Below, one piece after another: positions 36,149-58,929 of a stretch of DNA of 64,000 nt. Under the pieces are notes generated by a model. That model searched no databases and was not told the DNA's origin. It was given only the letters and a program-made list of their open reading frames with translations. This DNA comes from Cladosporium halotolerans (taxonomy: Eukaryota). Numbering within the stretch: position 1 is the first letter of the stretch; every line of letters starts with the position of its first letter. The stretch covers positions 496,001 to 560,000 of the forward strand of contig NW_027191458.1 of the NCBI RefSeq assembly GCF_011745625.1, given 5' to 3'. The position numbers were made by a program, and so were the translations under genes.

Positions 36149-38186
36149 TCAGATCAGCAGGAAATCCCACTCCTTCTCGCGCATGACCTCGCGCCAGTGC
36201 ACGCCGCGGTGGTCGCCGGCCTCCGCCGCCGCGTCGTTGCGCGCCCAGATCGTCGCGAGGATCTCGCGGATGCGGCCGAAGGAGCCGAAGCCCGCGGCGT
36301 CGCCCAGCTTCGCGCAGCGGTCGGCGAACATGAAGCGGAAGGGCGTGCCGGCGGTGGCGCTGGCGCCCGCGACGAGCAGCGGCCAGGCGAGGCTGCGGTC
36401 GAAGCCGTCGGGGCCCTCGGGGATGAAGTTCATGAGCTCGCTGAACTGCGCGAGCAGGTGGCAGACGGCGGGGGAGCGGGGCTCGTAGCCGGGGACCAGG
36501 CTGACGAGGTAGATGCGGGCGGCGAGGCGGAAGACGGCGGTGAGGTTGGTGCGGAGCTGTTTGGGGCGGATGGCGCCGGTGGGGGAGAAGCAGGTGTCGA
36601 CGACGGAGCCGGCGGCGCACTCGAAGGAGCCGATCTCTGTCGCGAGGATCTGCACGTACTTGCAGAGCAGGATGTCGTCGAGGTCTTCGGAGCGCTGGAG
36701 GTCGAGGCAGGCGATCTCGGAGATCAGGAACATGATCTTGTCTTCGCAGCCCATGAGCTCGGCGAGGCCGGCGCTGCCCTGGTTGAGGTTCAGGTTGCGG
36801 TAGGTGTCGGCAAACACGGGCATGCGGCCGACCATGGTGGCACCGAGAATGTCGATCCAGGCGGTCAGAGTCATGTTGAACGGCGGGTGAGAGACGCCAG
36901 TGGTCGACATCTCGACGACGTTGCTGGGCAGCTCTAGTTTGTTCACAAGACTTGTGGCGGCCTGGAAGTGCTGGTGCCATGGAATGTCGGGGAGTGCATC
37001 GTCTGGGCGTCCGACCGAGCACTGGAAGAAGATCATGCCAAGAGTTGCCTCTAAGATACGGTCGTGGTTGGTGTCCCGGTTGAGTGCTTCGCAGAGCTCT
37101 GAAATTGCCGTGTATCGGTGACGGACGATGTCGTTGTCGATTTGCTCGCCAGAAATGCCGTCGGTTGCCTTCATGTGCGTCGCAGCGATGCTCAAACAGC
37201 AGTGGAGGTAAGCCTTGTTTGATTCCAGCGCTGGCAAAACCACGTCAGAGCGAGCTGAGCCGTGCTGATTCGTATCAAGAATGGGGAACACGAGCTTGAT
37301 AACCTTGTCCAAGAAATGGTTCAGGAGGTACTTGTCTCCCTCTTCAATATCAATCACGGTCTCGTGAGTCGGAGTGATTTGACCGTGCGGGAAGTCGAAG
37401 AAGTTGAAGTCGACTTGCTCTTCAGGGAAGGTCTCTTGCAGGTTCTCATGGTATTCTTGCTGTACCCAGCTGTCGGAGGGGTACCCGGATAGACCATTCG
37501 AGCTTGAAGGCGGCTGGTATGTGCTGAAAGTCGATATTGTTGAGTCTCTCCGAGTCTGCACTTCGTTGACGAAGATGGAGCGCTCGGTCTTGATATCGAT
37601 CTCGTAGGGTGAGTACATGGGATACTGCGCATGCGGCGCGGCGTACTGTGGGTGCGGCGGAATCTGGAAGTAGCTGTCCTGCGACACCTGACCAAAGTCG
37701 CAAGGGCCAGTGAAGGGGGTGTCGACTGAAGAAGCGCGGCTTTCAGGCATCGAGTCTGTGTACACCTCTACTGAGGTGGGAGCAGAGGGGATGGAGTGGC
37801 AAAGCGAGGGTGGCGTCGTTACACTTTGCAGCTGAGAAGGCTGCGGACCCTTCTTCGACATCTGCGTGTGCTTGATCACGTCCTTGATGTGTTCCTTTTG
37901 CTGGCGTCTTTGCTCTGTGTTGCCCCACCACATGGGTCGCTTGTAGTCGCAACGAAGGCCGAGATGTCTGCAGGCTTTACATGAAGGCTTGCCCTCCTCG
38001 CATTTCTTCCTGCGGAGTCTGCAAGTAAAGCATCCTGAAACACGATCAGTCCTAGCTCAATCGTGAAGAGCCGGGGTTGTCCGAAGGAAACGTACCAGAT
38101 CGCGATCTTCGGTGCATCTTGGATGCGGTTGTTGGTTTGCTCTCCGCTGAGAGCGCGGATGTTTTTGTTGCTGTTGATACGGCCAT
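36149..38186 (-). CDS. pro1: Zn(II)2Cys6 transcription factor of the Pro1/ADV-1/NosA/RosA family; intron 38035-38095
   Basis: [44 protein letters not shown] after splicing; fungal-specific TF domain (LPDIPWHQHFQA, WIDILGATM, DRSLAWP); C-terminal HWREVMREKEWDFLLI. Confidence 0.92.
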
Positions 38187-41279: not shown

Positions 41280-43889
41280 ATGCAGGCTACCACACCGGTG
41301 TTGCCGAGGAACGTCGGCGACAAGATGTTCTTGCGGGCAAACAAATATCCCATGATGTCGCCGAGAACACCAACAACTCGCCCGCTGTCAGAAGCTACAG
41401 AGATATTCGACACGGACGGCGATGACGACAGCGAATTCGAGGAAGCACAGGCGATGGCCTACCAACAGCCACCGTCTCCCAGGGAAAGTGTCGGTTCAGT
41501 AAGTCGAATCAGATTATACGTTGGAATCGTCCCGTTACTGACGTAGCAGCAGGACGACAGCAGACGAAGAAGTCAGACCACCGTCTCGTCTTATGAAGAA
41601 GCTCCAACTCCCGATTCCAGCTCAAGTCGAAGTCGAAGGAGGCCTTTCGAGTTGCAGCTCAAGCCCGTGGAAGGACCTAAGGGTCCACACTTGTTCAGGT
41701 CATCTCAGATATCCACAGACTCCAGCTTCGACTATGCTTTGCAGATGTCTCCTTTGCTGCCAAAGCATCCCCCGCCTCGGACAGAAACGGCCTTTTCTCA
41801 AAACACGGTGACTCCGGTTTCCCAGCAACCTGCTATCAGCTTCTCGATCGACGCCCTTATGAACAACCCCTCCGATGACTTCACCTCCGCAGAAGCCGCA
41901 ATACGACAGTGGAACCCTACCCAGGTGATAGACTGGATGGTCGACACCGGTATCGACGAATCAGTCATTGAGTGCTTCGAGAAACACGACATCAGCGGTG
42001 CTGTGCTGTTGGCTCTGCAGTTCGACGACCTCAAGGAGATCGGTATTCATTCTTTTGGCAAGCGCCACCAGCTCTGGGACGCCATCTCAGCCGTACAAGG
42101 CAAAGAGGGTATTGCTCCAGAGCCAACTCCGTTCCAAGACACTAGCCGGCCCTGCACTACCGACACAAGACGCTCACCAAGTTGTTCTCGGAATGCATGC
42201 GACACACCCATCGAGTGCGATGTGCCTGCCCTGGAGCCAACCAAATCGAAAAAACGACGGGGACGAAAGGCGCCCAAAGCACCTGGGCCTACCACGCCCA
42301 TGGAATCAGTTTCCATTGTCGCGATAGAGCAGCTTCTTCCTAAGCCACACACCTGTGCTAAAGGCGAAGATTGCGCCAAGTGGCGTAAGCAGCAACGAGA
42401 GCTGAAACTTCTGCACCAGGAGAACGGCATCGGCAGATTCCCAATCAGCCCGACCAAGGGTGGCCGCATATTCGTACACGGTGACCCTGGCAATGCTGCC
42501 ACGGCGAGGAACATTGTGCCCCGTGAAGTCGAAAGGCAACGTGAAGAATCTTACGAGCCGCATTCAGAGGTCATTCCTTCGATTGTGGCGTCATCTGATG
42601 TCTTCGGTCCAAGCCAGCTTCCTGCTTTTGCGCTGCACGAGGGCATGCTTGAGCGGATCGACAAACGCGATCCACAAGAAAATGTCAAGCAATTCCTAAA
42701 CTTCCAGCACATGCAGTCACCTGTGTCGCCCATGGAAGACCAGTACCTCGACGGGACCTTGACCCCCATCGAGCGGCCGGCCACGTCGCCTCCGCAAAGG
42801 CGAGCTCCCGAGCCACTGCCATTGTTCCCTGAGGAGCATGTAACTCCGTTCCACCCACAGCAGACAGTACTGCAGCCGCTGCAATACAACTCTGGTCCAC
42901 ACCAGCACCTGAAGGCACTGCCGAAGCTTGACATTCCTCGCTCGGCGAGTGCCGCACCTGCGGCAAACTACATCAAGTCACCTGAGACTTCGAACATGAT
43001 TTGTCGGAGCACCACTGCTTCGCCGGGATCAGTCTACCGCCTGGGCACACCATCATCGGAGATGGATGTTCCAGTCACCTTCCAGGATGCCGGTCCCATT
43101 GAACGCGACACTTCACAATCGGTCCCTCCGAGCATGCAGTTCCGCGAGCAGCAACAACTTTCGCGATCGCACTCGCGCGCTCAGCCATGGCACCGCCCAT
43201 CCTTCGCACTGCCTGCTGTCAAGGAGAACGAAGTTTTCTCTCCCGTTTCGGACACGAAGAGCCGCCCAAGTCTGTCCTCTTCTCGTGCAGACAGCTCCAA
43301 CACCGCCAGCACCCGCAAGTCCAGCACATCGTCGATCGACTCCACAGCAAGCACCAAAGCCAAAGACCCCGCCCACCACAGCCCAACGACGCAGCAATTC
43401 GGCTACGGCGCCGAATGCACGCACGCGGGCTGGATGCGCAAGCGCAAGACCAAGATGCTGCGCCACGAGTGGCAAGACGCGCACTTCCGCCTCAAAGGCA
43501 CGCAGCTGGCCATGCATAGCAACGCGCGCCTCAGCGCCGCGGAGCTGGACTCCTTCGACGTCGACAAGTACGCCGTCGCCTGCTCGACGGCGCCCTCGAG
43601 CAGCAAGCTCAGCGCCGCCTTTAAGGGCCTGCACATCAGGAGCGACAGCAAGGGCAACGCCGATCCCGCGCCGTTCGCTTTCCAGCTCGTGCCGAATCGC
43701 GAGGGCGCTGGCGCCGGCGGTTCCGCGATGGGCCGGAAGAGTGCGGCGGACGGCGGCAAGACGCACCACTTTGCTGTCAAGACCAAGGACGAGCGCATCG
43801 ATTGGATGCGCGAGCTGATGCTTGCAAAGGCGCTGCAGCAGAAGGGCAAGGGGTACGAGGTCGAGGTGTACGGTGGCGAGCAGATCTGA
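41280..43889 (+). CDS. SAM- and PH-domain protein (Boi1/Pob1-related); intron 41499-41552
   Basis: SAM domain WNPTQVIDWM...HDISGAVLL...LKEIGIHSFGKRHQLW; PH domain HAGWMRKRKTKMLRHEWQD...HHFAVKTKDERIDWMRELM. Confidence 0.87.
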
Positions 43890-44327: not shown

Positions 44328-45152
44328 TTACCAGGCAGTCTTCCTCCTCCTGCCGGTGTATTTTGAGTTCGGCTTCACAATCTTGCCCTTCGCCTCGGAC
44401 TGCGCCTTTTTCCGTGTGATCCAGGCCTTGCTGCCTTTCCGCTCAAACTCCTTGCCTCGCTTCTTGTCCTTCCTTCTGGCATCCTGCACATCGACATCGC
44501 TCATCCTGCTGACGGTGCCCGAGACGTCTCCTCCACCAACCGTGAGCACCAGGTAGACCTTCAAGCTCTTCGTGTCCGGGTCGTCCTCCAGAATACCCGC
44601 GCCGAAGCCGGCTTTGATCGCCGCGTTGGAGATCATGCTCCTCTGCTGCGGGTTCTTGGGGTAGAACTGGCAGACTGCCTTGCCTCCTCGCCTCAAACTA
44701 GCATACAGCCCGTCGAAAAACCTCTTGAGCCTGCCTTCGGGCGTCACATCGCTCGTCTCCGCATTGCAAAGCCACTGGATCGCACTAATCGAAATGGCAG
44801 CGTCGAACGTGCCCGCGCGGAATGGGACTCCCTGCCCCATATCCGCGAGCAGCATGTCGCCCTCCACGTCGCGCTCCAGCGCCTCGCCCAGCATCGAGCT
44901 GGAGATGTCCATGCCGAACCAGGCGTGCGGCCCGCCGTGCTCTTCGGGCACGCCAGATAGGATCTCGCCGCTGAGGCCGGAGCCGCAGCCGACATCGAGG
45001 ATGAGCGAGGGGGTGTCGAGGTCGAGGAGCTCGAGGGCGCGGTTGGTCATGGACGCTTGGATGCTTTTTATGCGGCTGTTGGTGGTGTATTTGCGGGATT
45101 CGATGTCGTTGTAGAAGAGGTCGGGTGGGAGGATGTCTTCGGGGCGAGACAT
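44328..45152 (-). CDS. BUD23: 18S rRNA m7G methyltransferase Bud23
   Basis: MSRPEDILPPDLFYN; LDVGCGSGLSG; DMGQGVPFRAGTFDAAISISAIQWL; CQFYP; KYTGRRRK. Confidence 0.97.
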   Translation of the reverse strand: MSRPEDILPPDLFYNDIESRKYTTNSRIKSIQASMTNRALELLDLDTPSLILDVGCGSGLSGEILSGVPEEHGGPHAWFGMDISSSMLGEALERDVEGDMLLADMGQGVPFRAGTFDAAISISAIQWLCNAETSDVTPEGRLKRFFDGLYASLRRGGKAVCQFYPKNPQQRSMISNAAIKAGFGAGILEDDPDTKSLKVYLVLTVGGGDVSGTVSRMSDVDVQDARRKDKKRGKEFERKGSKAWITRKKAQSEAKGKIVKPNSKYTGRRRKTAW

Positions 45153-45460
45153 GGTGGCGGTTTATGTGTGTGTCGACTGAGGTATCTAGCGAATGTCTGG
45201 GGCAGCGAGTGGATGTGTTGTAGTATTTATTATGAGTAGTTCGCAAACAGCTTCCACTGCCAAAGTTGATTTCGATCTCTAAACTTTTGGCTCTCCAAGC
45301 CGATAAGATAGCACGGACCACTGTCCCGCAAGGAACAAGCGCCAGCAGTGACGAAACCCTGGGCCAAACAGCTGTGCTGATCTGCCCGCCGTGTCTAGAC
45401 TACAGGAATACGTAAAGCACTTGCGCTCCTCGTCCCGTATGCAACAACGATAGCAGCAAC

Positions 45461-46224
45461 ATGTGGATATTACCACTCCTCGTATGTTGCCATTGCAGTA
45501 TCGTTTCAAACGACAGTCTCACTAACACGACCACCAGGGCTACGCCGGCCTACTTCTAGGCTTCCTCTTCCTCACGCTGGCAATAGCCTCCGGCCTCTAC
45601 TACCTGTCCGAGCTCGTCGAAGAACACTCCGTCCTCGCGCGCAAAACCCTCAGCCGCATGATATACACGGTTATCGCGACACAAATTCTCCTCACAGTTG
45701 TCGACCGACTCCCCCTCTCGCTCTCCGCCCTCAGCATCGGCAGCCACATCCTGTACCTTCAGAACCTGCGGCGCTTCCCCTGGGTCAAGCTTACCGACCC
45801 AATCTTCCTCGCCTCCTGCGTGCTCGTGCTCGCGAACCACTACGCATGGTACCGGCACTTCTCGACGCCGCCGAGCCCGCCGCCGCGCTACAACTTCTAC
45901 GACCAGCCCAGCGCGCCGTCCTTCACGGAGATTGCGAGCTTCTTCGGCGTGCAGGTGTGGCTGGTGCCGTTCGCGCTGTTCGTCAGCCTGAGCGCGGGCG
46001 AGAACGTGCTGCCCAGCATGGGGTCGGAGTACGCGACGGGGGCCGGGAGCAGTTTTGTCAGCCCTGGCAGCGGGCCTGCTGGGGAGGTGAAGGCGGGCAG
46101 GAGTAGGGCTGGGACGCAGAATGCGGGGATGGCGAAGGCGGCGGTCAATGGTGTGAGGGAGTGGATTGGGGATACGGGAGAGCTTTTGGGCGCGTGGAAG
46201 GGGGAGAAGACGCGGCCGTTGTAA
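45461..46224 (+). CDS. SVP26: Svp26/TEX261 ER-Golgi transmembrane adaptor; intron 45482-45537
   Basis: MWILPLL|GYAGLLLGFLFLTLAIASGLYYLSELVEEH; IASFFGVQVWLVPFALFVSLSAGENVLP. Confidence 0.92.
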
Positions 46225-46592: not shown

Positions 46593-47420
46593 CTATTCGA
46601 GCTTGTAGACGTGCTCGACGGCCTTGTCAAGGGCATCGCCAAGCTGCTGAAGAGAGCGCTCGACAACAGTGCAGTCGCCCTCGGGACCGTTGCACTCAGC
46701 CTCAACCTCGTCGAAGTCGACCTCACCAGCAACGCCGGCGGCGGCAAGAGCGTGGGTGTCGCGAGCGCAGGTGGTGCCAGGAAGACCGCAGAGACCAACA
46801 CGCCACTTCTTCTTCTTGGCCTCGGGCTCGGCGTCACGCTTGACAGCCTCGTGGAAGGCCTCGGCGGCCTTCAGAACAGTGTGGCACTCGCCACCCTCCT
46901 CAAAGCACTCCTCCTTGAAGATTTCGGGGTCGTCCTCCTTGATGAGATCGATGCCGCGCTTCATCCTGGCGCAGGTGATGCCAGGGTAGCCGCAAAGGCC
47001 CAAGCGAGCCTTCTTCTTCTTCTTGGGCTCGGGCTCAGCGGAGCGAGCGCAGGTAATGCCAGGGTAGCCACACAGGCCCGGACGACGCCTAATCGCAGCC
47101 TCAGCCGCAGCGTCGGCGTCACGCTCGAAGACGGTCTCGACGGTGGCATCGAGGGCATCCTCGACGTCGGCGAGGGCGCTACGAGCCTTGTGGCAGGTCA
47201 TGCCAGGGAAGCCACAGAGACCCTTGCGATAGCGGACCTTGGGCTCGGCGGCGGCAAGGGCATCAGAGACGGCGAGGGCCGCACGCTTCGCCTTGTGGCA
47301 GGTCATGCCGGGGAAGCCGCAGAGACCCTTGCGCCAACGCTTCTTGGGCTCGGCCTCGGCGTCGGCGAAGACGCTGGCGGAGAAGGCCAGAATGGCCAGG
47401 ACGGCGCTGGTGACCTTCAT
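46593..47420 (-). CDS. ppg1: Secreted Kex2/Ste13-processed repeat precursor, alpha-pheromone precursor (ppg1/ccg-4) type, 275 aa, five GLCxxPGxTC peptides
   Basis: Signal peptide MKVTSAVLAILAFSASVFA; X-A/X-P spacers (DAEAEP, AAAEP, DADAAAEA, SAEPEP, DAEPEA); KR/R sites; C-x3-G-x2-C cores; acidic spacers CFEEGGEC and CNGPEGDC typical of ccg-4-type precursors. Confidence 0.78.
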   Translation of the reverse strand: MKVTSAVLAILAFSASVFADAEAEPKKRWRKGLCGFPGMTCHKAKRAALAVSDALAAAEPKVRYRKGLCGFPGMTCHKARSALADVEDALDATVETVFERDADAAAEAAIRRRPGLCGYPGITCARSAEPEPKKKKKARLGLCGYPGITCARMKRGIDLIKEDDPEIFKEECFEEGGECHTVLKAAEAFHEAVKRDAEPEAKKKKWRVGLCGLPGTTCARDTHALAAAGVAGEVDFDEVEAECNGPEGDCTVVERSLQQLGDALDKAVEHVYKLE

Positions 47421-47630
47421 GTTGGTGTTGAAGAGTCGAGTTGGTTTGTTTGGTTTGTTCGAAGTTGTAGAAAAGAGCTGTAGTCTTGAATCTAGACCTA
47501 CTGCGATTGAAGTTCGAGGAGCCTGTTGAAAGAATGACTCGTTGGTGAGTGATCGAAAATGAAAACGGCAAGAAGAACGTGTGTTGATATATGGCACAGA
47601 AGAGGAGGAAATGACCGTTGACTGGAGAGA

Positions 47631-48081
47631 TCAATGAACCTATGAAAGAAGACAAGGGCTCTCATGATAGCGGTTCAATGGTTCAGTTAATGGTAGTGAT
47701 CTATTGAGCCCACAATGAAAACGCTATTGACGACCATATTCGGAACTTGGCTAGAGACTGACACGCTCGTCGCGAAATGAAACAAGCGCGTTGTCAATGG
47801 GATCGCTTGACAAGAGTCGTCAGGTGGCGTGGAACCGTCGGTGAATGGGGTTGAGAGGTGTAGATTGATGAGCGTGGCACGATCGTTTCAGGACGCCAGT
47901 TCGTTGGCCTGGGTTGAATTGCTCGTCTAGGCAGTCATCCGAGATCTAATGATAAGGTCAATGTTTCCAGCCTGTTCCCACGTGGAGCAGGGACACAATG
48001 GACCACAGCCGTGTTCGTGTGTTGTGGCAAGGCTGCATGGCTGGTTGTGGTGGGGCTAGTCCGGATTCTGGTCTCAATAAG
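47631..48081. promoter_or_regulatory. Cluster of MAT1-1-1/alpha-box-type (CTATTGAG, TCAATG) and Ste12 (TGAAACA) elements upstream of the pheromone precursor
   Basis: CTATTGAG 47701-47708, CTATTGAC 47724-47731, CTCAATAAG 48073-48081; TCAATG at 47631, 47675, 47794, 47958; TGAAACA 47778-47784; GTTTCA 47885-47890. Confidence 0.65.
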
Positions 48082-48803: not shown

Positions 48804-50122
48804 ATGCTGTACAGAAGCTCCCAACGGGCCGCCTCGGTAAATCGCACAGTTCTCCCTTCGTCCGCTGCCTCTGTCGCTAACCACGTTGCGCGCAGGCTCT
48901 GCTGCGCACCCCCGTTGCAAGCCCTTCGATTGCCGCGCGCAGTATGCAAAAACCCACGCCTCGAACCCCGTAAAACACCCAATTAACCTCTGCGACTCAG
49001 GCTACGCCACCACCGGTACCGACATCTTCAAGCCGAGCAAGTTCGGCGGAAAGTACACCGTCACCCTTATCCCAGGTATGCGCGCGCAAAAAGCAAGGAA
49101 AACCACCGAGGACAGGGCTAAAGACGCAAACAACAGGTGATGGTATTGGTGCCGAGGTTTCCGAGTCGGTGAAGACCATCTTCAAGGCCGACAATGTGCC
49201 CATTGAGTGGGAGCAGGTCGACGTCTCCGGTATGGAGCAGGGCGGCAAGCACTCCGAGGAGCTCTTCCGCGAGTCCATTGCTTCCCTGAAGCGCAACAAG
49301 CTCGGTCTCAAGGGTATCCTCCACACTCCCGTCGAGCGCTCCGGTCACCAGTCCTTCAACGTCGCTCTCCGCCAGGAGCTCGACATCTACGCCTCCATTG
49401 TCCTGATCAAGAACATCCCCGGCTACGAGACCCGCCACAAGAACGTCGACCTGTGCATCATCCGTGAGAACACCGAGGGCGAGTATTCCGGTCTCGAGCA
49501 CCAGTCTGTCCCCGGCGTCGTTGAGTCGCTCAAGATCATCACCCGCGCCAAGTCTGAGCGCATCGCCAAGTTCGCTTTCTCCTTTGCCCTCGCCAACAAC
49601 CGCCGCAAGGTCACCTGCATCCACAAGGCCAACATCATGAAGCTGGCCGACGGTCTTTTCCGCAACACCGTGAAGAAGGTCGGTGAGGAGTACCCCACCC
49701 TCGAGACCGACGACATGATCGTCGACAACGCCTCCATGCAGTGCGTCAGCCGTCCCCAGCAGTTCGACGTCATGGTCATGCCCAACCTTTACGGTGGCAT
49801 TCTCTCCAACATCGGCGCTGGTCTCGTCGGTGGCCCCGGTATCGTCCCTGGCTGCAACATGGGCCGTGAGGTCGCCGTCTTCGAGCCCGGTTGCCGTCAC
49901 GTCGGTCTCGACATCAAGGGCAAGGACCAGGCCAACCCCACCGCTCTCATCCTCTCCGGCAGCATGATGCTCCGCCACCTCGGTCTCGACGACCACGCCA
50001 ACCGCATCTCCAAGGCCGTCTACGATGTCATCGCTGAGGGCACCAGGACCCGCGACATGGGCGGCGCCGCCACCACCCAGGAGTTCACCCGCGCTGTCCT
50101 CAACTCCATGGAGAAGCAGTAA
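48804..50122 (+). CDS. IDH1: NAD-dependent isocitrate dehydrogenase regulatory subunit 1, mitochondrial; three 5' introns
   Basis: Arg/Ser/Ala-rich presequence; VTLIPG|DGIG; ERSGHQSFNVALRQELD; RENTEGEYSG; HKANIMK; DNASMQ; PNLYGGILSN (regulatory-type, lacking the catalytic Asp residues). Confidence 0.96.
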
Positions 50123-50598: not shown

Positions 50599-51627
50599 AT
50601 GCCACGACCAAGACTCACGCTCTTCTTCGACATCGTCAGCCCTTTCGCGTACATGGCTTTCTATGTAACAAGGGTGAGCCTTCTTTTTGCGTTGTTAGAC
50701 AGATTACTTCAGCATCTTGTGATTTCTGGGTACACGCGTCCACTCTGTTGCCACTGTCACCTTCTCTGGTGGCTGCGGCATGCATGAACTCCGCCTTGCA
50801 GACTACTACCTTAAGCAGAATGTGGTCCTACGGGCTGGTTTCTTCCTCGATGAGTAACGATGAACTTCCGTTGAACACCCCTTCTTCGACTCATACCTGA
50901 TTGAGAGCCATCACTGACACGTCACAACCAAGAACTCGCCCGTCTTCAAGCAATGCGACATCAAGTAAATCTCCCTCTTGCTCCTCTATCTCTCAGGCAT
51001 ACGACTAAAACTGGCACAGCTACATCCCCATCTTCCTCGGCGGCGTAATGCAAGCATGCGGCAACACGCCCCCGATCAAGATCAAGAGTACGGCATCCCA
51101 CCGTCTGAAGCCCATGCCGTACCATTGACACCTGTACAGACAAAGACAAATACATCGCACACGACCGCGAACGCTCCGCCGCGCTCTTCAGCATCCCCAT
51201 GGCCACCAAAGTGCCTGAAGGCTTCCCCCCAAACACCCTCCCCGTCCAGCGTGCCCTCTGCACAGTCCAGGCCGAGCACCCCGAGAAGCTCCCCGAAGCC
51301 GCTGCGGCTCTGTACCAGACTTTCTGGGTTGAGGGGAAGCAGATTGGAGAGCTAGAGGTCGTCAAGGCCGGTTTGGCGAAGGTGTTTGGTGAGGGGAAGG
51401 CGGCGGAAATTGTCGCGACGGTCACGAAGCCGGAGGTGAAGAAGCATCTGAACCAGAACACGGAGGCCGCGCTTGAGCGGGGCGCGTTTGGGTTGCCGTA
51501 TTTTGTGGCGACGGATGCGGAGGGGAGGGAGGATGTGTTCTTTGGGTTTGATCGGTTGGCGATGGTTGTGAGGCATTTGGGGTTGAAGGAAGAGGGTGGA
51601 GAGAATGGCTTCAAGGCACTGCTATAG
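50599..51627 (+). CDS. GST-kappa / 2-hydroxychromene-2-carboxylate isomerase (DsbA-like); three introns, the first 50674-50932
   Basis: LTLFFDIVSPFAY; YIPIFLGGVMQACGNTPP; GAFGLPYF; FFGFDRL; ends KAL-L (PTS1-like only weakly). Confidence 0.87.
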
Positions 51628-57938: not shown

Positions 57939-58929
57939 TCACCCCAACATCGCAACAACAACATGCAAAAACCCATCCGCGAACCCCGCCACGCGGCCCA
58001 GCTCGCCCAGATTCGCTCCCATCGGCACCACAGCGCCATGCAGCACCGGCTGAGCGAGCAGCGGCGCACGTCTGCTGGGGAAGATGCCTGGAAGAACCGA
58101 GTTGAGTGCCGTGCCCAGCGTCTGCGGCTGTTTAGAAGGCATTTGAAGCGGCACGAGGGCCTGCACGACGCGGATGTGGCCTGGCTGGGGTTCGCTGCCT
58201 TCAGGGAGAGTCTGGGACGTCGACGCCGTCGACGCGGCGGCGGGCAGGTAGAACTTGATCGGCACGTGTTTGACCGTCAGGCCCGGCGGGGCGAGGAGTT
58301 TGGCGTTGACGCTGTTGAAGAGGTCCCAATCATCTGCGCATCCGTCAGCTCTGACATCCTCCCACCCCTCGAAAAGAATGAATTCTCAAAAACAAAAAGA
58401 ACATACGCTCCCTCACCCCCCTCCACAACGCCTCCGAATCCCCCAAACTCAGCCCCATCACCGCCCTCGCGCTCCCGTTCCGCACGAAATCCGCCTCCTT
58501 CACCGCGTTCACGAACATATCCCACACGACCCTGCCGCCGTCGTCGAGCCTCACCAGCCTCTCCTCGGGGAAATCCCCATAGTGCAGCGTCAGCTCCCAC
58601 GCCCCCTGGAACCCCTCCGTCCCCTCCCCTCCGACTCCGGCTGCGGCCGCGCCGTGCAAATCGAACAACAACCCCACCGCCCACCCCCACTTCAGCACGA
58701 CGCCCTGATATTCAAACCAGGCTTCGGAGTCGCGCGCGAGCGCGGGGTCGATGAGGTGGGGCGCGAAGAAGGCGTGCAGGCGCGGGAGGAGGAGGGGCAG
58801 GTGGGAGAGGCGCGGGAAGTGGGTTAGGTAGGGGGGCGTGGAGGTGTAGGAGCGGGAGGCGGCGGGGGAGAGGGTGATTTGGAGGGGGAGGGTGGAGGTT
58901 TGGATGAGGCGTTGGAGGTGGGCGGACAT
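57939..58929 (-). CDS. ATG5: Autophagy protein Atg5; intron 58334-58406
   Basis: LPLQITL...PRLSHLPLLLPRLHAFF; WFEYQGVVLKWGWAVGLLFD; FVNAVKEADFVRNG; KHVPIKFY; TLGTALNSVLP; LHGAVVP; ADGFLHVVV. Confidence 0.93.

Follow-up and report, generated by a model that had tools for sequence, protein, structure and literature searches.

A candidate alpha-pheromone precursor gene with strongly basic peptide leaders in Cladosporium halotolerans

The locus and its open reading frame

The stretch of DNA analysed here, hereafter the window, spans 64 kb of a Cladosporium halotolerans contig (NW_027191458.1), and its minus strand carries an unbroken open reading frame (ORF) at 46593-47420 that encodes 275 amino acids (aa), from an ATG at 47420-47418 to a TAG at 46595-46593. 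This gene is very probably the orthologue, in a Cladosporium-like Dothideomycete, of ppg1, ccg-4 and ppgA, which encode alpha-factor-like mating-pheromone precursors. We base this assignment on profile matches to pheromone precursors, a colinear hhalign match, the adjacency of an isocitrate dehydrogenase (IDH) gene, a promoter cluster of sites that match the MAT1-1-1 consensus, and the lack of a DUF3328 gene nearby. No intron has to be postulated, since homologues of 270-301 aa align over 100% of the ORF length. The first 19 residues are hydrophobic and close with V-F-A. The parts of the precursor, in order from the N-terminus, are:

46593-47420, minus strand: complete single-exon coding sequence of the putative ppg1/ccg-4-type alpha-pheromone precursor, 275 aa plus TAG (full-length alignment; hhalign 99.4%)
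47364-47420, minus strand: predicted signal peptide MKVTSAVLAILAFSASVFA, aa 1-19 (hydrophobic N-terminus, family-conserved; modelled helix 3-20; putative cleavage site)
47295-47345, minus strand: copy 1, KKRWRKGLCGFPGMTCH, aa 26-42 (DA-EA-EP before, KAKR after; internal KR)
47241-47282, minus strand: spacer 1, AALAVSDALAAAEP, aa 47-60 (seven dipeptides, six of them X-A/X-P and V-S the exception)
47190-47240, minus strand: copy 2, KVRYRKGLCGFPGMTCH, aa 61-77 (..AA-EP before; KAR-S after, no dibasic pair)
47046-47096, minus strand: copy 3, AIRRRPGLCGYPGITCA, aa 109-125 (DA-DA-AA-EA before; monobasic R-S after)
46968-47024, minus strand: copy 4, KKKKKARLGLCGYPGITCA, aa 133-151 (SA-EP-EP before; RMKR after)
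46884-46907, minus strand: acidic C-x6-C loop 1, CFEEGGEC, aa 172-179 (in a helical spacer; no flanking cleavage sites)
46764-46817, minus strand: copy 5, KKKKWRVGLCGLPGTTCA, aa 202-219 (KR-DA-EP-EA before; monobasic R-D after)
46596-46694, minus strand: C-terminal module, aa 243-275, made up of CNGPEGDC (46671-46694) followed by TVVERSLQQLGDALDKAVEHVYKLE (homologous to the Sordariomycete ccg-4-type CNxPGGAC-T..RDLHA)

The original prediction described an atypical pheromone-type precursor that releases five different polycationic disulfide-loop peptides. The five loops and their coordinates, the leaders, the X-A/X-P dipeptides (DA, EA and EP) and the C-terminal flanks were all recovered on the 275-aa translation as it had described them, and so were the extra Cys pairs in acidic context (CFEEGGEC, aa 172-179, and CNGPEGDC, aa 243-250). 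The first Cys codons of the five GLCGxPGxTC cores start at 47321, 47216, 47072, 46994 and 46790. From copy 1 to copy 5 the leaders read KKRWRK, KVRYRK, AIRRRP, KKKKKARL and KKKKWRV, with G-L then preceding the loop, and the C-terminal flanks read HKAKR, HKAR-S, AR-S, ARMKR and AR-D. All five copies are preceded by X-A/X-P dipeptides and followed by K or R. Counted by hand from the last X-A/X-P dipeptide to the residue past the second Cys, the copies carry charges of +5, +4, +3, +6 and +5.

This layout is that of a KEX2-processed repeat protein (KEP), a class defined in the text of PMC6339444 as secreted proteins with at least three similar motifs bounded by KR, RR or KK: the window protein has five similar motifs, and dibasic pairs follow copies 1 and 4, precede copy 5 and occur within four of the leaders. 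A six-frame scan of the whole 64 kb for the loop (C..[PG]G..C or C...G[QE].C) gave eight matches, five of which lie inside the ORF, and found no second pheromone-like ORF in the window.

Homology to alpha-pheromone precursors

A sequence search at E <= 0.01 returned 31 relatives. Those with a species name that come nearest belong to Cladosporium fusiforme (70% identity), Peltaster fructicola, Meristemomyces frigidus and Phyllosticta capitalensis, which assigns the window to a Cladosporium-like Dothideomycete. With a profile built from 15 family members, 74 proteins were matched at E <= 0.001, among them "pheromone precursor 1" of Fusarium albosuccineum (E 4.3e-27) and proteins named "Clock-controlled pherom..." (Cercophora, Baudoinia) or "Pheromone" (Pseudogymnoascus destructans, Sporothrix). 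As names of this kind are automatic annotations, we compared profiles directly. An alignment of the clade was matched by hhalign to seven ccg-4-type proteins with 99.4% probability (E 7.8e-22) over 250 colinear columns. The match extends beyond the repeats to the signal peptide, to the K-x-K-R-A-A-x-A junction that follows a copy, and to the non-repeat C-terminal module CNxPxGxC-T..R.L, which reads CNGPEGDC-TVVERSLQQL... here and CNSPGGAC-TYATRDLHAI... in Cercophora. Together with the C-x3-G-x2-C loop, which is kept, this homology bears out the view of the gene as a pheromone-type precursor.

Alpha-pheromone precursors have been characterised by copies of 9-14 aa (up to 24), a PG or GQ beta-turn and, in Pezizomycotina, a C-x6-C arrangement (as described in the available text of PMC10569646 and PMC6339444). 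All 26 full-length clade relatives carry between three and eight loops, exactly five in 22 of them, and two acidic loops are present in 25; the five-loop layout, being kept in these relatives, is not a product of chance. Each named non-hybrid species yielded a single match, Cladosporium fusiforme for instance contributing one.

Seen against this clade, the label "atypical" was not borne out. It came from a comparison with Sordariomycetes only, and the basic leaders, the acidic spacers with Cys pairs and the monobasic AR that closes copies 3 and 5 are present in nearly all of the 26 clade relatives. Recurring across the clade as they do, these AR ends are conserved and not a sign of decay. The missing Trp is not unusual either, as the repeat RCGYPGQPCG reported for Leotiomycetes illustrates (PMC10569646, in the text available), nor is the heterogeneity of the leaders within one precursor, for which the window protein ranks fifth lowest of 22 in identity among copies 1-4 (0.54, with 10 of the 22 at 0.65 or less).

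The basic leaders of the peptide copies

The 26 full-length clade proteins contain 131 C-G-type loops, and the eight residues upstream of a loop typically carry a net charge of +2 to +4. A leader form common in the clade, K/R-I-K/R-S-x-x-G/S-L, directly follows E-P or E-A. As judged from these proteins, the basic leader is a clade-wide trait. The window protein has the most charged leaders of the 26, with +5, +4, +3, +4 and +4 for copies 1-5, the typical pattern being +3, +3, +3, +3 and +2.

The leaders vary in a particular way. In 21 proteins with exactly five loops (the 99% identical twin P0002 being excluded), the leaders of copies 1-4 are 0.76 identical within a protein, as against 0.50 between proteins at the same copy, while the corresponding values for the loops are 0.92 and 0.86. 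Leaders are homogenised within a precursor and variable between species, as expected for the part of a pheromone that bears its specificity. Moreover, KR, RR or KK occurs within the eight residues upstream of only 7 of 121 loops in the relatives, as compared with four of the five leaders in the window protein. Because the leaders are homogenised within precursors and dibasic pairs are avoided in relatives, the basic leader probably belongs to the mature pheromone. In this species, Kex2 may trim the leaders, given the dibasic sites inside four of the five. The products predicted for copies 1-5 after such trimming are WRKGLCGFPGMTCH, KVRYRKGLCGFPGMTCH, (R)PGLCGYPGITCA, ARLGLCGYPGITCA and WRVGLCGLPGTTCA, with hand-counted charges of 0 to +2, and +4 for copy 2; the predicted untrimmed peptides would carry +3 to +6. 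Within the set of proteins compared, this species stands apart in two respects, the highest leader charge and the dibasic sites in four of five leaders.

Two further observations concern leaders elsewhere in the family. Many relatives (L001-L008, P0005-P0022) have, ahead of CGYPG in the fifth copy, a conserved long leader of the type KFKWGPKYWHPKQNPRIKS-x-x-S-S; the window protein and that of C. fusiforme lack a fifth-copy leader of this type and have a short basic one in its place. In the lichen-forming relatives Xanthomendoza and Gallowayella (P0055, P0057), the basic stretches RRYRGQF and RNYRGRF stand ahead of the loop, and basic extensions are therefore not confined to Dothideomycetes.

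Spacers, acidic loops and C-terminal module

The 24 correctly parsed proteins (23 relatives and the window protein) all have a spacer 1 of 14 residues. Of the 25 parsed proteins, 12 have X-A/X-P at all seven dipeptides, a number that rises to 13 when P0025 is added by eye, and the rest have six of seven, with V-S the exception. The pattern used for parsing missed P0027 and mis-parsed P0025, whose spacer, AALAVAEALAEASP, scores seven of seven by eye. The invariant Ala or Pro at every second position suggests an unusually long course of stepwise trimming by a Ste13-type dipeptidyl aminopeptidase. The same stretch is a helix in the AlphaFold model.

In the first acidic loop, C172, C179 and the intervening GGE are invariant among 11 aligned relatives. 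The second, CNGPEGDC at aa 243-250, has no cleavage sites and, together with the helix that follows it, is conserved as far as the Sordariomycete ccg-4-type proteins. With the same C-x6-C spacing as the pheromone loops, the acidic loops look like old pheromone copies retained in the pro-region.

The AlphaFold model has a mean pLDDT of 55, its best parts being the helical spacers at 60-76. Values below 50 are found at residues 1-39, 62-67, 117-148 and 196-223, where most of the five copies fall. Such low-confidence copies between helical spacers would suit a precursor with exposed peptides.

Genomic neighbourhood and promoter

The features that flank the gene, or lie in its promoter, are:

45526-46224, plus strand: main exon of an Erv26/Svp26 cargo-adaptor gene (PF04148, E 4e-79; convergent; GT..AG intron joint at 45482-45537)
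47584-47591, minus strand: TATA-like block TATATCAA (seven of eight columns invariant in a six-sequence alignment; putative function)
47630-47800, no strand assigned: promoter cluster of four YYATTGAB matches (within 171 bp; 210-380 bp upstream of the ATG)
48974-50122, plus strand: last exon of an NAD-isocitrate dehydrogenase subunit gene (PF00180, E 3.5e-83; divergent; three upstream intron joints)

The original prediction had guessed SVP26 and IDH as neighbours, and the Pfam matches show both guesses to be right, with Erv26/SVP26 downstream and the NAD-isocitrate dehydrogenase gene upstream. Two Pseudogymnoascus gene models (P0061, P0076) have a pheromone precursor fused to PF00180, probably as an artefact of annotation, and the IDH part of the fused model is 87% identical (297 of 341 residues) to the IDH of the window. 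From these fusions and this identity it follows that the pheromone gene adjoins the same IDH gene in another fungal class. Ten metagenome loci that encode clade relatives (53-64% identical proteins) were also examined. The IDH gene lies upstream on the opposite strand in all six of those with at least 1800 bp of upstream DNA.

Further genes near the locus were recognised by Pfam. A DSBA-like thioredoxin-domain ORF at 51109-51624 on the plus strand (PF01323, E 2.8e-15) is separated from the pheromone gene by some 3.7 kb. A Zn2Cys6 transcription factor (36149-38056, minus strand), a SAM plus PH domain protein (41547-43889, plus strand), a WBS/Bud23-type methyltransferase (44328-45161, minus strand) and an ATG5 fragment (57942-58385, minus strand) look like ordinary housekeeping or regulatory genes.

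The alpha-box consensus of Aspergillus fumigatus MAT1-1-1 is (T/C)(T/C)ATTGA(G/T/C), or YYATTGAB (PMC8022922, in the text available). The window has 30 matches to it, including a fifth upstream of the gene at 48073-48080. Four matches in 200 bp, as in the promoter cluster, are the maximum of the window and were reached in none of 150 simulations of the whole window (first-order Markov) and none of 3000 with promoter composition. All eight relative loci for which 600 bp or more of upstream DNA is available have at least three matches within 400 bp upstream, at distances of about 205-220, 232-247 and 319-333 bp. In an alignment of six promoters with a mean column identity of 70%, the site at 47724-47731 and the ATTGA core of that at 47630-47637 fall in invariant blocks, and the other two are not positionally conserved. 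The cluster fits control by an alpha-box factor, as in the case of ppgA/ppg1 in Aspergillus and Penicillium.

Another block that is invariant in this alignment, TTCATTGT at 47712-47719, adjoins the conserved CTATTGAC site and, we presume, resembles a site of the HMG-box type. Among the words that we take to be Ste12 or HMG sites, TGAAACA occurs once in the promoter (47778) and seven times in the window, and CTTTG occurs once in the promoter, numbers too low to interpret; ACAAAG was not found in the promoter.

Predicted processing of the precursor

By analogy with the family, the signal peptide would bring the pre-pro-protein into the secretory pathway, where a Kex2-type protease would cleave after the KR that follows copies 1 and 4 and after that which precedes copy 5. 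Cleavage after the lone Arg that closes copies 2, 3 and 5, and after that preceding copy 3, would fall to Kex2 or to a protease specific for monobasic sites. The X-A/X-P dipeptides before each copy would then be stripped by a Ste13-type dipeptidyl aminopeptidase, and a Kex1-type carboxypeptidase would trim the C-terminal basic residues. The predicted output is five peptides of 14-19 residues built on a G-L-C-G-aromatic/L-P-G-x-T-C turn, which a Ste2/PRE2-type receptor of the partner cell would sense; through the dibasic pairs in four of the five leaders, Kex2 may shorten them here, for example to WRKGLCGFPGMTCH. Together with the C-terminal module, the acidic helical spacers would constitute a pro-region of the kind that Sordariomycete precursors have. 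Transcription of the gene is probably controlled by the alpha-box factor MAT1-1-1, as its promoter sites indicate.

Weighing of the assignment and of alternative explanations

Several observations weigh against orthology to ppg1, ccg-4 and ppgA. The pheromone names of the profile matches come from automatic annotation rather than experiments, and Pfam has no model for the 275-aa protein, which gave just sub-threshold matches to DUF4418 (19.1 bits, the cut-off being 27) and DUF6811; these we took to be noise from hydrophobic and Ala-rich stretches. A classical dibasic KR follows two of the five copies (1 and 4), the other three having a single Arg after them. With two dibasic ends among five copies, cleavage after a single Arg must be assumed. 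The synteny is imperfect: the Pseudogymnoascus fusions imply that the pheromone and IDH genes are on the same strand there, they are divergent here, and orientation is thus not conserved; Erv26 is downstream in just two of the three metagenome loci that extend 1900 bp or more in that direction. The alpha-box consensus is a Eurotiomycete one, and the test for it was chosen after the gene had been identified.

Evidence of transcription is also thin. In RNA-Seq run X19, a 225-nt contig covers 46580-46804, the 3' end of the ORF, and flanking intergenic DNA is uncovered; the IDH contigs of this run are spliced, and RNA of the organism is therefore present in it. Run X12 has spliced IDH and Erv26 contigs together with a 2771-nt contig at 45809-48586 that extends from Erv26 across the gene into intergenic DNA with 67 differing letters, and which may be DNA carried over from another strain or the result of read-through transcription. 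Runs X17 and X18 look like DNA or mixtures, and the depths, being given per contig, cannot rank genes. Taken together, these runs give a weak hint that the pheromone gene is transcribed.

It could be that the peptides have a dual function, in which the polycationic extension makes them membrane-active, antimicrobial or concentrated at anionic surfaces, with or without signalling through Ste2, and in which the acidic spacers neutralise the charge of the precursor. We regard this as unlikely. In its favour, none of the other clade proteins, among the 26 compared, has leaders as highly charged (+3 to +5 over eight residues), strong acidity marks the spacers and both extra loops, and the F. oxysporum alpha-pheromone, which binds membrane mimetics (PMC7289986, in the text available), provides a precedent. 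However, basic leaders of lower charge are found throughout the clade beside ordinary pheromone features, so that charge alone is no sign of a new function, and Kex2 would probably remove most of it through the KR, RR or KK in four of the five leaders, leaving 0 to +2. Acidic X-A/X-P spacers, for their part, are standard in all alpha-factor precursors, and the charge-neutralising role in the pro-region that the original prediction had given them is speculation; the peptides themselves are short and were modelled without confidence. A more elaborate form of the idea is a two-part ligand in Cladosporium-type Dothideomycetes, in which a near-invariant C-G-Y/F-P-G-M/I-T-C turn would be joined to a retained, species-variable polybasic arm that sets receptor specificity and might also confer membrane affinity or antimicrobial action; the five diversified and unusually charged versions found here would then make a multi-ligand, dual-purpose precursor. 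This, too, seems to us doubtful.

The remaining alternatives would remove the gene from the mating system altogether. We think it very unlikely that it is a KEP paralogue with another signalling or effector role and that the true ppg1 lies elsewhere in the genome. The scan for a second precursor was confined to the 64-kb window, which also counts against orthology, and pheromone-like layouts with other roles have been described (PMC6339444, in the text available). Yet the colinear homology to ccg-4-type proteins takes in the non-repeat C-terminal module, the IDH adjacency is found with the Pseudogymnoascus pheromone gene as well, the promoter has its alpha-box cluster, and neither the named non-hybrid species, with one match each, nor the window itself offers a second candidate. 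Least probable of all, to the point that we give it hardly any credence, is a precursor of a ribosomally made peptide (RiPP) of the dikaritin/ustiloxin type, with Tyr/Phe cores cross-linked by DUF3328 oxidases. Repeated short cores with Tyr or Phe between basic sites would agree with it, and RiPP precursors of the KEP type have the same layout; the criterion for dikaritins is a gene for a DUF3328 (UstYa) oxidase near the precursor gene (both points as described in the available text of PMC7329392). Among 139 ORFs at 36-58 kb, roughly 10 kb to each side, there was no match to DUF3328/UstYa or a tyrosinase (E <= 0.001), nor to another tailoring enzyme. Furthermore, copy 5 here has Leu at the aromatic position, where relatives have Ala, Pro or Val, and the neighbours are housekeeping genes in conserved synteny.

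Significance and comparison with known systems

Sexual cycles are rarely seen among Cladosporium-like fungi. Our analysis provides what is very probably the alpha-pheromone gene of one such fungus, along with predicted peptides that can be synthesised to probe mating, chemotropism and quorum effects. At the level of the clade it adds a basic arm, homogenised within precursors and variable between species, that has no dibasic pairs in relatives, a conserved alpha-box cluster, and a C-terminal module in common with Sordariomycetes. The general picture of how alpha-type pheromones act is unchanged by these findings.

A search of the full-text literature for six loop strings of the window protein and its relatives matched no paper. 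Two-Cys alpha-pheromone candidates have been reported in 13 non-Pleosporales Dothideomycetes, where the two Cys are conserved as in Leotiomycetes and Sordariomycetes, and Cladosporium fulvum is listed there as a presumed asexual fungus in which genes for sexual pheromones are retained (Le Marquer et al. 2019, PMC6339444, in the text available). The window precursor belongs to the same fungal class and answers to the same description of a two-Cys protein with KEX2 repeats, and no basic extension is mentioned in the available text of that paper.

The precursors of Cercophora, Podospora, Sporothrix and Fusarium have in common with the window protein a signal peptide, X-A/X-P dipeptides and repeated C-x3-G-x2-C loops with a P-G turn. 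The likeness to ppg1/ccg-4/ppgA proteins further includes the K-x-K-R-A-A-x-A junction, the helical spacers and the C-terminal CNxPxGxC-T..R.L module. Unlike the ppg1/ccg-4 set, the window copies have no Trp at the cysteines, with G-L before the first Cys and A or H after the second. The eight-residue stretch between the dipeptides and the loop is basic here, whereas in Sordariomycete and Leotiomycete proteins it is acidic, with a mean charge of -0.78 (26 distant proteins, all loops). Three of the five copies end in a single Arg, in contrast to the ppg1/ccg-4/ppgA precursors.

The pheromone WCTWRGQPCW of Fusarium oxysporum, the relative studied in most depth, has the same loop spacing as the copies of the window protein but is ten residues long, rich in Trp and charged +1. 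Its positive charges and its Trp residues mediate binding to membrane mimetics, and its oxidised Cys2-Cys9 form is biologically inactive, the reduced form alone being active (PMC7289986, in the text available). Given this inactivity of the oxidised form, the label "disulfide-loop" that had been attached to the peptides is to be used with caution and is an assumption.

The closest likeness in the loop itself is to Leotiomycetes, for which the repeats RCGYPGQPCG/RCGHPGQPCG and WCGRPGQPC have been described, with stress on the PG or GQ turn (Wilson et al. 2023, PMC10569646, in the text available). Their C-G-Y-P-G-x-x-C is near-identical to the CGYPGITC loop found here, and the first two of these repeats are also without a flanking Trp. 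The two systems differ in that the Leotiomycete repeats have a single basic residue before the loop, as compared with the +3 to +5 leader of the window protein, and QP in place of M/I-T before the second Cys.

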